Shown in pieces: positions 28,737 to 33,031 of a stretch of 64,000 bases of DNA. The position numbers were made by a program, and so were the translations under genes. This DNA comes from Escherichia coli (GTDB lineage: Bacteria > Pseudomonadota > Gammaproteobacteria > Enterobacterales > Enterobacteriaceae). The notes under the pieces are model-generated. The model did no database searches. It had not been told where the DNA came from and saw only the letters and a program-made list of their open reading frames with translations. Every line of letters begins with the position of its first letter. Positions within the stretch are counted from its first letter, which is position 1. Location of the stretch: the NCBI RefSeq assembly GCF_011045215.1, contig NZ_CP049202.1. The stretch is one strand, 5' to 3'.

Positions 28737-29440
28737 GGCTCTTCCGCAACTTGGGTGGAGATTTTCATGCCAGTGGACTCATGACCCTCTGCCTGAGTAG
28801 TTCAAATCCGGCTCGACCATACATCTGGCGTTTCAACATCTTCAGGCGATTTACATGACCTTCGACAACACCATTACTCCAGCGACTGCTGATTGCCTCA
28901 CATATAGCCGCAGCATCAGCTTCCATCCCCGCCGCCACGCGCCGAAGTTCTGCTGAACCGCTTTCGTGGACTCGAGTGAACCAGCTGCTTAGCTGTGATC
29001 TATTTTGGGTTTTCAGAATACGGTAGAACTCGAGTACCAGTTGCTGCGCTATTTTCAGCTCCGGTTCTTTTTCACACATCAGACTAATAAATCGGGAAGC
29101 ATAATTTTCTTCACCCCTGATTATTCTCCAGGGCATCAACCAGCGGCTTACCCGGGACACTGAAGGAAGTCTGGCGGCAGTAGTAACCGGTGGGATCCAG
29201 CCTTTACGCCATTTGGCTACAGCATCCCTGACGATGGTTTCACTGCCTGTAAACCCCCGGGACACCATTTCCCGCCATATCCGGCTGGCGTTATAATTAC
29301 CGCTTTCTCGTTGCTCTTTTAACCACTCCCTCCATGGGTCCAGAAGCCCTCGCTTTGGAGGCCGGGTTGACATTTCAGGGAATGTTCCTGAACGCACCCA
29401 GCGACTGACTGTCACACGCGACAGGCCTGTAATACGGGAT
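28737..29440 (-). mobile_element. ISL3-family element remnant (one end plus 3' half of transposase gene)
   Basis: Terminal repeat GGCTCTTCCGCAACTTGGGTGGAGATTTTC at 28737-28766 overlapping the transposase stop; N-terminal half of the gene absent. Confidence 0.55.
28765..29415 (-). pseudogene. ISL3-family transposase, C-terminal 216 codons
   Basis: C-terminal ...WSNGVVEGHVNRLKMLKRQMYGRAGFELLRQRV characteristic of ISL3-family transposases. Confidence 0.65.
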
Positions 29441-29898
29441 ATTTCCCTGAAACTACATCCCTTGTTGGGGGTAATAGGAATAATGACGATTAGTTACTTG
29501 TCATCTTTCATTGATGCAAATCGAGTTTCGAATATAAATAACATTATATCTAGTGTTATTCGATGACATTAGTGTCAGGGGAGTACACCTCCCCTGGTAA
29601 ATAGTTTATATGTTCCTATAAAGAACCAAAGGTACAAATATGTGAATATATATATCCCAATGTATAGTGTTATATAGAAGAAAGACAAAAACAGGTCATT
29701 TTTTGACATTAATACAAATGTTTTTGATGACAAGGTTAGTTCTGTGTCAGTTAGCAAGAAACAGTATATCATGGATATATAAAGAATAGTGAAAGGAGTT
29801 AATATGGAGAGCATGAAAAACCCTGGGGCAGTCACTGAATGAGGGACCAGCAGCGGTAAAATAACCTGCATAATTTCATAATGATGCCTCCGTTAGTT

Positions 29899-30489
29899 AT
29901 GAAGGTTTACGTCATTAAAATTGCTGTTCGTGGTGTCAGTCCTATGGTCTGGCGTCGGCTGAGGATTGCTGCCGATACATCACTGGCTGCACTTCATTTT
30001 ATTATCCAGATCATTCAGGGTTGGGGTGATGAACACCTACACCAGTTTCATATTTACGGTAAAGATTACGGTATCACTTACGAGGGGGGCATTGGTTTTC
30101 CGGATAACCCGTTCCAGGTCGTGATTGATGATTTTGAGTTTGATGTCGGCGATCGCTTTACTTATGAATACAATTTATTTGAGCACTGGATTCATGATAT
30201 TCGCGTTGAAGCCATTTATGAAAACACCGAGCTGAAAACGCCATTTTGTATAAGTGGTCATGGTATGCCCGGAGCCACAGTTGCAGATGAGTTTAATAAA
30301 ACCCTGGCGTTTCTTGAAGCCATCGTTAATGCAGATGATGAAACTACGATTGGTGAGATTCGCCCTTTTGCTGACGACCTGGACGCTGTCCGGTTTAACC
30401 GCAACAAAATCAACCGACGGCTAAGCAAACTCGACCTTGCCTTTCCAGCGCTGGAGCCTGAGGTAATTTGGCTGGGGCGTCGTCGCTGA
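29899..30489 (+). CDS. plasmid pRiA4b ORF-3-like family protein
   Basis: MKVYVIKIAVRGVSPMVWRRLRI... resembles the N-terminal signature of the PRiA4_ORF3 family as recalled. Confidence 0.5.
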   Translation: MKVYVIKIAVRGVSPMVWRRLRIAADTSLAALHFIIQIIQGWGDEHLHQFHIYGKDYGITYEGGIGFPDNPFQVVIDDFEFDVGDRFTYEYNLFEHWIHDIRVEAIYENTELKTPFCISGHGMPGATVADEFNKTLAFLEAIVNADDETTIGEIRPFADDLDAVRFNRNKINRRLSKLDLAFPALEPEVIWLGRRR

Positions 30490-30624
30490 CTGCTTCTATA
30501 AAGGTATACGTTTTCAATATGTCCCTCAGTTACCCGGAAAAATGTCTATAAACCTCCATAAATCGGTGTTTATGGATTATTCTTTAAATCTCTATAATGT
30601 TTAAAGACATTCCAGAGGTTTCAC

Positions 30625-31197
30625 ATGCAATATGCCTACATCAGGGTGAGCTCGTCCGACCAGAATACAGCACGTCAGGAAGAAGCATTGTTAAAGGCGG
30701 GTTTTCAGCCAGATAAAATTTATGTTGAACATGCCAGTGCTAAGGATACAAACCGACCGGAGTTGCAGAAGCTCCTTGAGCAACTGCGCCCGGGAGATAC
30801 ACTTCTTGTCCATTCCATCGATCGCCTTTGTCGGAATATGATGGATATGTGTGCTGTAACAACCAGGCTTCGGGAGATGGGCGTTACCCTTATTTTTCTG
30901 AAGGAACAGCTTACGTTCAACGCTGGAACAAGCAATCCAATGCAGGAGTTACAGTTGCACATGATGTCTGCATTCAGTCAGTTTGAACGTGCTTTACTGA
31001 AAGAAAGGCAGGCTGACGGTATTGCAGCGAAAAAAGCGCGGGGAGAAAAAACAGGGCGTCCCTGCGCAGATATCAAAAAAGTTCAGGAAATTGATGAGCT
31101 CAGAAGTCGTGGAGTCAGGCTCCGGATCGCCTGCGACCATGCCGGTCTCGGCGTTTCAACATATTATAAGCTTCGCAACCAGATGAAAAACCAGTAA
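30625..31197 (+). CDS. serine recombinase (resolvase/invertase family)
   Basis: MQYAYIRVSSSDQNTARQ... catalytic serine motif, C-terminal HTH; 190 aa. Confidence 0.85.
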   Translation: MQYAYIRVSSSDQNTARQEEALLKAGFQPDKIYVEHASAKDTNRPELQKLLEQLRPGDTLLVHSIDRLCRNMMDMCAVTTRLREMGVTLIFLKEQLTFNAGTSNPMQELQLHMMSAFSQFERALLKERQADGIAAKKARGEKTGRPCADIKKVQEIDELRSRGVRLRIACDHAGLGVSTYYKLRNQMKNQ

Positions 31198-31231
31198 CCA
31201 GGAGATAATCTCACCACCGCCGGAGGCAATA

Positions 31232-32635
31232 ATGAAACTGACATTTCAGATAGTTATAACCGATGAATCAGGCTCCAGTCGAACGGAAGAATTGATGAGT
31301 CTGCAGAAATCAGGAGATGCCCTGAATGATATCGGATTATCAGTTTCAGAATCGAAGCAGTTGTTGGGGGCTGTCCAGAAGTCGCTGGTTCAGCAACAGG
31401 CAGACGAATATATTCACCAGAATATCCGATGTCCTCACTGCCTTACGAAGCGCAGAATCAAAGGCCAACAAAAAATCCAATACCGGACGTTGTTTGGCGT
31501 TATTCCTGTATCAGGACTTCGGGTGTATCGGTGCTGCTGTGAAGAAAGTGCAACAAAAACAGTCAGTCTGCTCAGTGACTGGGCTGGAGATCACACTCAC
31601 CCTGCACTGAAATATATAGAAACCCGCTGGGCCTCTTTGATCTCGTATGAAATGACGGCTCGTTTACTAAAAGATGTCCTGCCGGTAGGGTACAGTCTGA
31701 ATGCCTCAACGGTGAGGAATCATTTATGCCGTGTGGCACAGCGTCTTGATTCTGAGGCAGAATCACATTCCGGCTTTATTTCAGGTTGCCCCCGCGACTG
31801 GGGAAACCTGCCAAAACCGGGAAAACCTCTGGTGGTGGGTATTGATGGCGGTTATGTCCGCGATCGGGATGACAAGAAACGTAATTTTGAAATTATTGCC
31901 GGTAAATCATTTTCAATCGGAGCACCGGCCGACGCACGTCGCTTTGGTTTTGTTCAGAAGAGCGACTGTCATCCGGAACGTCGGCTCATGGCACACCTTT
32001 CTGCTCAGGGAATGCAGGCTAACCAGCAGATATTCTTTTTATCCGACGGCGCGGATAATCTGAGGGAACTGCAGTTCGGTATGTACCCTGAGTCAATTCA
32101 TGTGCTTGACTGGTTTCATATTACGATGAGGCTGACGGTGTTAATGCAGTATGCAAAGGGACTGCAGGCATCAGATCCAGCGACGGGCAGTAAGGTGTTA
32201 TCGCTTCTGGAAAGCAGTAAACGATACATCTGGCACGGTAATGTTGCCACTGCACTGGATCGTATTGACGATTGCGTTATGTACTGTGATGACCCTGAAC
32301 TCAACTATGCAAACCTGAAAGCCCTGCAAAAACAGCTGGATGAGATGTATACCTACATCCGTAATAATCAGATGATGATCCCAAACTACGGAGAAATGCG
32401 CCGGTATGGTGAGCCAGTTTCAACAGCATTTGTAGAGTCAACAATCAACGAAGTGATCGCCCGACGAATGGCCAAAAAGCAGCAGATGCAGTGGAGTAGA
32501 AAGGGGGCGCATTATTTGTTACAGACCAGAACTGCAGTCCTGAATAACGAACTACAGGACAAATTCGCCAGTTGGTATCCCGGTTGTACGACAGACGCTC
32601 AGAGTAGAGGGACGTTATCCGCGATGGCAGCATAG
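31232..32635 (+). CDS. DDE transposase, ISKra4-like (ISNCY group) tentatively
   Basis: 467 aa, N-terminal zinc-finger-like CPHC...CCCEE, central ...VVGIDGGYVRDRDD... and ...LDWFHITMRL... motifs; family assignment from memory. Confidence 0.45.
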   Translation: MKLTFQIVITDESGSSRTEELMSLQKSGDALNDIGLSVSESKQLLGAVQKSLVQQQADEYIHQNIRCPHCLTKRRIKGQQKIQYRTLFGVIPVSGLRVYRCCCEESATKTVSLLSDWAGDHTHPALKYIETRWASLISYEMTARLLKDVLPVGYSLNASTVRNHLCRVAQRLDSEAESHSGFISGCPRDWGNLPKPGKPLVVGIDGGYVRDRDDKKRNFEIIAGKSFSIGAPADARRFGFVQKSDCHPERRLMAHLSAQGMQANQQIFFLSDGADNLRELQFGMYPESIHVLDWFHITMRLTVLMQYAKGLQASDPATGSKVLSLLESSKRYIWHGNVATALDRIDDCVMYCDDPELNYANLKALQKQLDEMYTYIRNNQMMIPNYGEMRRYGEPVSTAFVESTINEVIARRMAKKQQMQWSRKGAHYLLQTRTAVLNNELQDKFASWYPGCTTDAQSRGTLSAMAA

Positions 32636-32655
32636 CTACGGCCCCAAGGTTTTTC

Positions 32656-32877
32656 ATGCTCTCCATCTCCAACGCGATCGTTTATTACAACTCGGCGATC
32701 CTGTCACGTTTGCTGAAGCGACTGGAAACAGAAGGTAATGAAAAGGCCATTGAGGCTCTGACCAGGATATCACCAGTAGCCTGGCAACACATTTTGCTGA
32801 ATGGGCATTATACCTTTCAGAACAGTAATGAACTTATTGACCTGGATACATTGGTAGTCGGTTTAAAACTGGGATAG
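32656..32877 (+). pseudogene. Tn3-family transposase, C-terminal fragment
   Basis: ...NAIVYYNSAILSRLLKRLETEGNEKAIEALTRISPVAWQHILLNGHYTF... resembles the Tn3-family TnpA C-terminus; no upstream gene body. Confidence 0.55.
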
Positions 32878-33031
32878 CGGAAATTTCGGCGGTTCCGGCG
32901 TAGAACCCCGAGTAGACCCACTAAGTGATATCGGAGATATTGAGTCCGAATATGACGGTTAACAACATGATAAATAATGGTTTTTATGCTAAGAGTGAGA
33001 CTTTTGGAGGAAATGGGCGCAGAACCCCAAA

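Follow-up and report, generated by a model that had tools for sequence, protein, structure and literature searches.

Sequence comparison identifies positions 29806-32664 (plus strand) of the window, i.e. the 64-kb stretch of Escherichia coli DNA analysed here, as a single intact copy of a catalogued insertion sequence (IS). This 2859-bp element is very probably an isoform of ISEc51 and belongs to the ISKra4 family (ISAzba1 group of the prokaryotic Mutator-like, or p-MULT4, transposases), with ISKpn19 as its sister. It aligned over its full length, at 97.7% nucleotide identity, with copies that the NCBI pipeline labels "ISKra4-like element ISEc51 family", full-length matches so labelled being present in many plasmids, and at ~84% nucleotide identity with ISKpn19. 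Boundaries were set by alignment of nine copies from different contexts, the tips being identical in all, and comparison with the uninterrupted targets on either side (cni and a Tn3-family tnpA) assigned the outermost G29806 and C32664 to the IS. An inverted-pair search, combined at the right end with the nine-copy alignment, delineated 27-nt terminal inverted repeats with two mismatches at 29806-29832 (GGAGAGCATGAAAAACCCTGGGGCAGT) and 32638-32664 (ending in TTTTTCATGCTCTCC), both given on the plus strand. Their tips read GGAGAG...CTCTCC and they enclose three co-oriented genes. Across a set of 139 ends representing diverse phyla, the tip motif of the left repeat was conserved, and the 27-nt repeats agree with the length (18-39 bp) and terminal C described for ISKra4-type (p-MULT4) elements (PMC3942029). 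Taken as a whole, an intact ISEc51 isoform together with the mechanism proposed below is very probably the best explanation of the region.

The element, located on an E. coli-type plasmid amid fragments of three unrelated elements, is already known, its architecture having been published in 2014, and for the window it is an ordinary finding. Guerillot et al. reported that ISAzba1-group elements share a pRiA4_Orf3-like ORF and that a serine recombinase, for which they proposed a role in cointegrate resolution, is present in five of these elements (PMC3942029). This was the one relevant paper in our literature search on the mechanism of ISEc51 and ISKpn19, which otherwise returned descriptions of context only. 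The first-pass annotation had listed the pieces of this region correctly, each being recovered at or near the positions it gave, and had called them a mosaic of transposon debris. That description suits the ISL3 and Tn3 remnants on the flanks, but not the three core genes, which form an intact IS within its 27-nt repeats. Likewise, the suspicion that recombinase, transposase and PRiA4 gene are parts of a single mobile unit holds, but this unit is a complete IS rather than a composite transposon or a remnant. The outer pieces (ISEc38, cni, Tn3 end) map to unrelated, catalogued sequences without a common boundary, apart from two of them being cut by the IS; for these pieces, this is the outcome that the first-pass annotation had named as refuting its reading.

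To the left, positions 28716-29466 (minus strand) hold a ~750-bp 3′ fragment of an ISEc38-like, ISL3-family element, including the last 702 nt of its transposase gene. A terminal repeat of the ISL3 type (GGCTCTTCCGCAAC) starts at 28738, and the minus-strand ORF 28765-29415 matched only the C-terminal part of Pfam DDE_Tnp_ISL3 (profile positions 115-240 of 240, E = 1e-13) and of NCBIfam ISL3 (240-368 of 370), which upholds the earlier call of an ISL3 end with a partial transposase. Identity to annotated ISEc38 copies was 96-97.5%, every alignment stopping at 29466, and the fragment is collinear with NZ_CP010124. It is followed by the 3′ remnant of a colicin N immunity locus (29467-29805, minus strand), made up of cni codons (29575-29805) and the downstream spacer. 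The gene, of which 231 nt encoding the C-terminal 76 of 174 residues (Pfam Colicin_im, profile positions 63-135) are retained, was truncated by insertion of the IS: the match to NZ_CP010124, which has an undamaged cni, is 99.9% identical and ends exactly at 29805, beyond which the uninterrupted gene runs on as CTTTAGCGC. This remnant and its spacer had been taken for an AT-rich promoter-like region, a view that did not hold, as a promoter and terminator scan of 29700-32800 gave nothing above shuffle expectation. The neighbouring segment bounded by ISEc38 is inverted relative to NZ_CP010124, a local RecA-type rearrangement.

To the right lies a 245-bp Tn3-family transposon end (32665-32909, plus strand), made up of the final 213 nt of tnpA (32665-32877) plus a 38-bp inverted repeat (32872-32909, minus strand; GGGGTTCTACGCC...). 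The coding part corresponds to the last 49-52 residues of Tn3 TnpA (C-terminal Pfam and NCBIfam matches), and the ATG of the 73-aa ORF starting at 32656 is contributed by the IS end. The stub is 96.4% identical to the end of a 4.1-kb Tn3-family transposon that is intact in NZ_CP024227. The other inverted repeat of that transposon is a 100% match to 32878-32909, and its cognate resolvase is located at the opposite side of tnpA. Positions 32878-32920, where the first-pass annotation had suggested looking for inverted repeats and res sites, hold this Tn3-family repeat and not an end of the IS.

The transposase gene (31232-32635, plus strand) is intact and encodes a 467-aa Mutator-like DDE enzyme that matched the NCBIfam ISKra4 model NF033572 with 393.7 bits (cut-off 205; E = 1.1e-117; profile positions 16-422 of 422), similarity to the NCBIfam models of ISLre2 and ISH6 being weak. 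A Pfam search gave no match, PF01526 (Tn3 TnpA) included, and a PDB sequence search no meaningful one. Full-length 467-aa database entries were 99% identical, while partial entries of 426-451 aa, two of them named ISEc51 family, were 100% identical over 91-97% of the protein. Among 12 aligned sequences, down to 43% identity, D205 was invariant, and D272, D293-W-F-H296 and E402 were at least 90% conserved. By alignment, the protein carries the Mutator-type signature of a D-D-E triad with D(2)H and a glutamate placed after a long insert.

The first gene of the element (29899-30489, plus strand) encodes a 196-aa PRiA4_ORF3 (MM3350-like) protein. The longest ORF opens at 29881, but the coding sequence probably starts at 29899, since homologues begin at Met7 of that ORF. 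ORF 29881-30489 matched PRiA4_ORF3 (PF07929) with E = 7.5e-31, and the gene likewise lies upstream of the transposase gene in relatives from Providencia, Xenorhabdus, Nitrosomonas, Paracaedibacter and Spirosoma. From these comparisons, it accompanies the transposases of this clade as a conserved partner, in Enterobacterales and as far as Bacteroidota, rather than being the passenger that had been proposed. In the monophyletic sub-branch, the transposase gene is preceded by a pRiA4_Orf3-like ORF (PMC3942029), a feature that the window element shows by its PF07929 match and by the gene order it shares with relatives.

Between the two lies a gene for a 190-aa small serine recombinase with a C-terminal helix-turn-helix (30625-31197, plus strand), ending 34 nt before the transposase gene; domain matches confirmed this arrangement, along with the PRiA4 gene and the Tn3 stub, as first annotated. 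Residues 3-141 matched PF00239 (E = 9e-41), and the catalytic motifs YIRVSSSDQ and SIDRLCR can be read directly from the sequence. PDB matches comprised full-length Gin invertase (the best, 2.5e-25), Sin and the Tn3/gamma-delta resolvases, with residues 3-183 aligning to full-length Gin and Tn3 resolvase. Judged by its distribution, the recombinase is a dispensable part of the element, being absent from three relatives (L011, L012 and L049). A single plasmid carries both L011 and L012, so that derivatives lacking the recombinase have still multiplied.

Upstream of the recombinase gene, where the first-pass annotation had suggested looking for res (30490-30624), positions 30495-30612 (plus strand) form a putative three-subsite res with crossover in site I. 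Half-site clustering, covariation and hybrid breakpoints, i.e. the in silico signs considered, were all positive. Candidate site I (~30495-30518) has the core AAAGGTATAC at 30500-30509; candidate site II (30545-30576) reads TCTATAAA-N16-TTTATGGA with an extra TCCATAAA half-site at 30555-30562; and candidate site III (30581-30607) reads TCTTTAAA-N11-TTTAAAGA and includes TATAAT at 30593-30598. Six of the 14 matches to TCYWTAAA in the 64-kb window cluster here, within 113 bp. In an alignment of nine diverged elements, the three-site layout was conserved and the half-sites covaried (TCTATAAA/TTTATAGA versus TCTCTAAA/TTTAGAGA). Two independent natural hybrids have breakpoints within site I (30494-30518): in L007, ISEc51-like sequence gives way to ISKpn19-like sequence between 30494 and 30518, and L015 and L097 share 55% identity left of the AAAGGTATAC core and 93% right of it. 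These breakpoints sit at the best-conserved 20-bp stretch, where homologous recombination could produce them too. The literature found contains no description of res anatomy, module exchange or insertion at Tn3 tips for these elements.

Both junctions of the IS lie exactly at its tips, and the uninterrupted cni and tnpA sequences reveal two unrelated targets. The copy has no target-site duplication, implying that its junctions come from different sites. ISKra4/p-MULT4 insertions are described as flanked by direct target repeats of 8-9 bp (PMC3942029). When duplications of 7-9 bp were sought, none was found in the window copy and eight other ISEc51/ISKpn19 copies, and most of 19 paired ends of relatives lacked them. 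Two Providencia copies have perfect repeats whose length can be read as 7-9 bp. A length of 9 bp goes with IS tips GAGAG...CTCTC, but the cni and tnpA targets assign the outer G and C to the IS in the window copy, which leaves the range at 7-9 bp. Exchange at res as the whole cause of the missing duplications proved insufficient, given that the recombinase-less L011 and L012 also lack them. A chimeric query joining the IS right end to the continuation of cni, used to look for a simple-insertion ancestor or the reciprocal junction, returned no record spanning the junction. In PLSDB and the complete E. coli genomes, no record covered at least 80% of 28500-33100, and the exact junction pair cni/Tn3-family tnpA was not found.

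Gene set, gene order and terminal repeats are all shared with ISEc51 and ISKpn19, without structural difference; what sets the window copy apart is that it joins two unrelated targets (cni and Tn3-family tnpA) with no target duplication. Like the window element with its candidate res, Tn3-family transposons of the Tn21 subgroup combine a co-oriented res, small serine recombinase and DDE transposase, have three dyad res subsites of unequal spacing and yield natural hybrids broken at site I. However, their transposase is a ~1000-aa PF01526 protein, unrelated to the Mutator-like 467-aa enzyme, and their inverted repeats are 38 bp long and start with GGGG, compared with 27 bp and GGAGAG here; the window element moreover adds the PRiA4_ORF3 gene and lacks 5-bp duplications. 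IS256, ISLre2 and TnGBS resemble the window element in their DDE triad, with its C/D(2)H signature, and in the terminal C at the repeat tips (PMC3942029). Unlike that element, they have neither a PRiA4 partner nor a resolvase, and they regularly generate 8-9 bp duplications and use circular intermediates, whereas ISEc51-type copies mostly lack duplications.

Relatives of the window IS have inserted recurrently beside Tn3-family 38-bp repeats, with a constant spacing to the outer GGGG, just outside the repeat and with either IS end facing it, such cases being a minority of insertions. The window copy itself sits 245 bp inside the Tn3 element, not at its tip. IS4321 and IS5075, IS1111-type elements with DEDD chemistry, target the inverted repeats of Tn21-family transposons. 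Their insertion at Tn3-family repeats resembles that of the window-IS relatives, but the former are DEDD elements landing within the repeat, the latter DDE elements landing just outside it.

In the mechanism that we propose, the transposase would move the element, probably assisted by the PRiA4 protein as a DNA-binding accessory factor. The recombinase would act at res like a Tn3/Tn21 resolvase, separating fused replicons or multimers, and, when bound at res upstream of the recombinase-transposase pair, would probably damp expression of both genes. Exchange between res sites may, as a by-product, swap halves and flanks between copies. The mismatched junctions of the window copy could stem from recombination between two copies or from intramolecular replicative transposition; by either route, the 5′ portion of cni would have been lost together with the bulk of the Tn3-family element. 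Several points count against this mechanism: the best solved relatives of the recombinase are invertases (Gin), not resolvases; a circular copy-out/paste-in intermediate is presumed for transposases of this family (PMC3942029), a route that would make cointegrate resolution unnecessary; derivatives without the recombinase have multiplied all the same; the hybrid breakpoints could also reflect homologous recombination; and the search for a reciprocal junction turned up none. We tentatively entertain, as possible though by no means favoured by the odds, a broader scheme in which elements of the ISEc51/ISKpn19 type have arrived convergently at a "Tn3-like" design, with a Mutator-like transposase as its basis. 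Transposition would be replicative, the three-subsite res and resolvase would resolve its products and continually swap halves and flanks (contributing to the missing duplications), the PRiA4_ORF3 protein would be an obligatory DNA-binding subunit with a fold shared with eukaryotic SNAPC3, and landing would be preferential at Tn3-family repeat tips.

Less likely than not, and slightly less probable than this broader scheme, is that the element is ISEc51 with recombinase and res as cargo serving the host plasmid (in multimer resolution, as a stability cassette or as an invertase-type switch) rather than a transposition step. Spread is possible without the recombinase (L011/L012, L049), Gin is its closest PDB match, transposition via circles is presumed for the family (PMC3942029) and ISEc51-type elements are overwhelmingly plasmid-borne, in Enterobacterales. 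Yet with a single site I, and no second, inverted one of the invertase arrangement found in the window, inversion is unlikely; the co-oriented res-recombinase-transposase order with its 34-nt gap parallels Tn21-type res-tnpR-tnpA, and missing duplications in most copies fit replicative or cointegrate chemistry better than insertion by cut-out or copy-out. We consider it unlikely that the copy is an inactive relic whose junctions arose by homologous recombination of a general kind, or by deletions, within a mosaic region of the plasmid and not through the element's own enzymes: the absent duplication, the truncation of both neighbours and the inverted ISEc38-bounded segment suit such a history, but the three ORFs are intact, as are both inverted repeats, other records contain full-length transposases 99% identical to this one, and junctions exactly at the IS tips implicate transposition chemistry at each.

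Hardly credible, finally, is a patchwork of unrelated fragments, with PRiA4 as a passenger and the recombinase left by a decayed composite or Tn3-like unit transposon beside an ISKra4-type transposase. ISEc38 and Tn3-family fragments do flank the genes and the IS lacks a target duplication, but the inverted repeats enclose all three genes, and a 2.86-kb unit with identical ends recurs in thousands of plasmid records and varied contexts, shared boundaries that refute a patchwork. A composite transposon is excluded by self-BLAST of the IS, which found one copy only in the 64-kb window, and a Tn3-family unit transposon by the lack of a PF01526 match and the different inverted repeats, only the 245-bp stub being Tn3-family; the resolvase that belongs to the stub lies, in the intact element, across tnpA from this end, and not here.

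For the window, the result is a correction of annotation of little consequence, one intact ISEc51-like element replacing "debris". Across thousands of enterobacterial plasmids, however, ISKpn19-type elements accompany qnrS1 and other resistance genes. A PRiA4 core partner with the recombinase as an optional module, a defined candidate res site and a possible preference for Tn3-family transposon ends would be useful to annotators and to studies of how such plasmids rearrange.

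All ORFs listed in the first-pass annotation were found in the sequence, as was the 34-nt gap it gave between the recombinase stop and the transposase start, although its interpretation of the region was supported only in part. Pfam assigned the C-terminal half of an ISL3 transposase (28765-29415, minus strand), PRiA4_ORF3 (29881-30489, E = 7.5e-31), a serine recombinase catalytic domain (30625-31197, E = 9e-41) and the last 49 residues of a Tn3 transposase (32656-32877). The recombinase's catalytic serine lies in the motif YIRVSSSDQ. The 467-aa ORF at 31232-32635 had no match in the Pfam search and scored 393.7 bits with the NCBIfam model 'ISKra4 family transposase' (cut-off 205 bits). 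A repeat search identified a terminal inverted pair (29804-29832/32638-32666) surrounding the three central genes, and in a megablast against PLSDB 29806-32673 matched as a single block, with 97.7% identity to plasmid copies whose transposase is annotated by NCBI as 'ISKra4-like element ISEc51 family' and ~84% identity to ISKpn19 copies, both of which have the three genes annotated in the window's order. PLSDB has roughly 3,200 copies, and complete E. coli genomes gave the same pattern. Alignment of nine copies from nine different contexts defined the ends as GGAGAGCATGAAAAA... and ...TTTTTCATGCTCTCC, placing the IS, present once in the window, at 29806-32664 (2859 bp). Over 91-97% of its length the transposase is 100% identical to incomplete database proteins (426-451 aa), of which two bear the name ISEc51 family, and full-length 467-aa entries match it at 99% identity; D205, D272, D293xxH296 and E402, the catalytic signature defined in PMC3942029, are kept. 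Rather than the debris previously proposed, the central gene trio makes up a single intact insertion sequence that has already been catalogued, set within an ordinary plasmid mosaic, and the real debris is in its flanks. The element design has been described by Guerillot et al. 2014, who divided the 'p-MULT4' Mutator-like transposases into ISAzba1, ISMich2 and ISKra4 groups, with a pRiA4_Orf3-like ORF common to a monophyletic ISAzba1 branch and a serine recombinase in five members of that branch (PMC3942029).

On the left, an ISEc38-like ISL3 element is represented by its 3′ 750 bp (28716-29466). The next segment (29467-29805) is 99.9% identical to plasmid NZ_CP010124 and corresponds there to the 3′ portion of cni, the colicin N immunity gene. 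This match ends exactly at 29805, with the uninterrupted cni continuing as CTTTAGCGC; the 'AT-rich promoter-like region' of the first-pass annotation is therefore a truncated immunity gene, and a promoter scan there did not exceed shuffle expectation. On the right, a Tn3-family transposon has left its terminal 245 bp (32665-32909), comprising the final 213 nt of tnpA and a 38-bp inverted repeat (GGGGTTCTACGCC..., minus strand). NZ_CP024227 has an intact 4.1-kb element whose end is 96% identical to this segment and whose uninterrupted tnpA reads ...GCCTG|ATCTCC. Since the cni and tnpA targets are unrelated and a target-site duplication is absent, the IS joins DNA of two different insertion sites. 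The window's junction pair was found in no PLSDB or complete E. coli genome record, and the reciprocal cni junction in no database record.

Both flanking ORFs are insertion-made chimeras: the 73-aa Tn3-stub ORF (32656-32877) takes its ATG from the right end of the IS, and the 98-aa colicin-immunity remnant (29575-29871, minus strand) starts inside the left end. The ISEc38 transposase fragment (full protein in NZ_CP010124, 540 aa, long for ISL3) matches an IS21-type helix-turn-helix region over residues 2-71 (E = 4e-9), N-terminal to the ISL3 catalytic C-terminus. Further left, a block carrying a RelE/ParE toxin-antitoxin pair, a PapB-like and an AraC-type regulator (25743-29466) is inverted relative to NZ_CP010124 (1580-5302), where a full ISEc38 and an inverted partial copy flank it; the inversion appears to result from recombination between ISEc38 segments in opposite orientation. 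In NZ_CP024227, 60 bp left over from an ISEc51-like right end (locus positions 5255-5314, 93% identity) also occur ~500 bp past its Tn3-family element. Downstream of the Tn3 stub (33032-36287) follow a 245-aa ORF without Pfam or NCBIfam match, a RelE/RelB-type toxin-antitoxin pair and a RepA-type replication initiator (35259-36287; weak IncFII_repA Pfam match), which supports an IncF-like plasmid origin of the window.

The PRiA4 gene had been read as a passenger; it is instead a core part of the element. It lies directly upstream in transposase relatives at 54-64% identity, including those of Providencia, Xenorhabdus and Nitrosomonas, and searching ~100,000 species genomes for the tip motif of the inverted repeats gave 120 loci, among which PRiA4-plus-transposase elements occur also in Paracaedibacter and Spirosoma. 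The recombinase is limited to a subset of lineages, and how it was lost can be followed: exactly 30495-31212 is missing from an Enterobacter asburiae element that shares 84-88% identity with the window copy, and in elements of Photorhabdus and Xenorhabdus a deletion extends from the candidate res core as far as recombinase codon ~160. Since one Xenorhabdus plasmid has two copies of such a recombinase-less element at separate positions, spread does not depend on the recombinase. The Photorhabdus/Xenorhabdus deletion (L036:8090-8240 and L011:3870-4000, against window 30495-31110) fuses the site I core AAAGGTATA to AAAGG(C/T)AT, a stretch of the recombinase gene resembling that core; it could have arisen by an aberrant recombinase event at this pseudo-site or by deletion through microhomology.

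The suggestion to look for a res site around 30490-30624 proved fruitful, yielding a candidate (30495-30612) with clustered, conserved and covarying half-sites. Six of the 14 window matches to TCYWTAAA fall within the 135-nt spacer 5′ of the recombinase gene (~0.01 expected in this span), where they form dyads. The three-site layout is kept in nine elements whose flanks have diverged beyond alignment: site I has an invariant TAAAGGTA.AC.TTT and is separated by a variable spacer from site II, whose outer half-sites lie ~16 nt apart, and site III has an 11-nt spacer. Half-sites covary: the E. coli pair is TCTATAAA/TTTATGGA, Xenorhabdus and Photorhabdus have TCTCTAAA/TTTAGAGA, and a further two lineages combine TCTATAAA with TTTATAGA. 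Crossover is predicted at the central AT of GGTATACG (30506-30507), and site I contains the breakpoints of two natural hybrids that are independent of each other: an element in NZ_CP035885 switches between 30494 and 30518 from 97% ISEc51-like (left) to 95% ISKpn19-like (right), and a Providencia and a Xenorhabdus element share 55% identity to the left and 93% to the right of the AAAGGTATAC core, changing exactly there. A perfect TATAAT inside site III suggests possible autoregulation.

As to what the recombinase does, the order of res, recombinase and transposase parallels that of Tn21-type transposons, and cointegrate resolution as in Tn3 was suggested for the recombinases of that ISAzba1 branch (PMC3942029). 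An inverted second copy of site I is absent from the window, which speaks against an invertase switch. According to the published view, however, Mutator-like transposases use a circular intermediate (PMC3942029), a route that would make a cointegrate resolvase unnecessary; a role in serving the plasmid through multimer resolution is therefore a live rival. Target duplications are absent from most of the copies and relatives searched; two Providencia copies have perfect 7-9-bp flanking repeats. Replicative or intramolecular events and flank swapping fit the missing duplications; res exchange is not the whole explanation, as recombinase-less copies lack them too.

In several relatives, 7-8 nt separate the IS tip from the outer GGGG of a 38-bp Tn3-family inverted repeat (L015:5415-5470, L017:5415-5470, L008:4361-4400, L095 near 1311, L105 near 6951; L075 and L111 may be further cases). 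The perfect 7-9-bp target repeat of the two Providencia copies lies directly against the Tn3 repeat. Among the relatives, either IS end can face the Tn3 repeat. Among unselected ends, 4 of 139 showed GGGG at this offset (~0.5 expected). Tn3-family genes are interrupted also by the window copy and L016, and by ISKpn19 beside qnrS1 (truncated tnpR; PMC5034289). Paired IS-type tips with a spacing of just 87-230 bp in Larkinella, Saprospiraceae, Ignavibacteria, Regiella, Photorhabdus and others (L042:3862-3948, L044:7460-7605, L081:11606-11745, L111:2269-2412, L115:12459-12601, L066:1687-1915, L037:870-1080) look like miniature non-autonomous (MITE-like) derivatives; none has a flanking duplication. 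The value added here is modest, and lies in the res anatomy, the core status of PRiA4 and the recurrent placement of relatives at Tn3-family ends.
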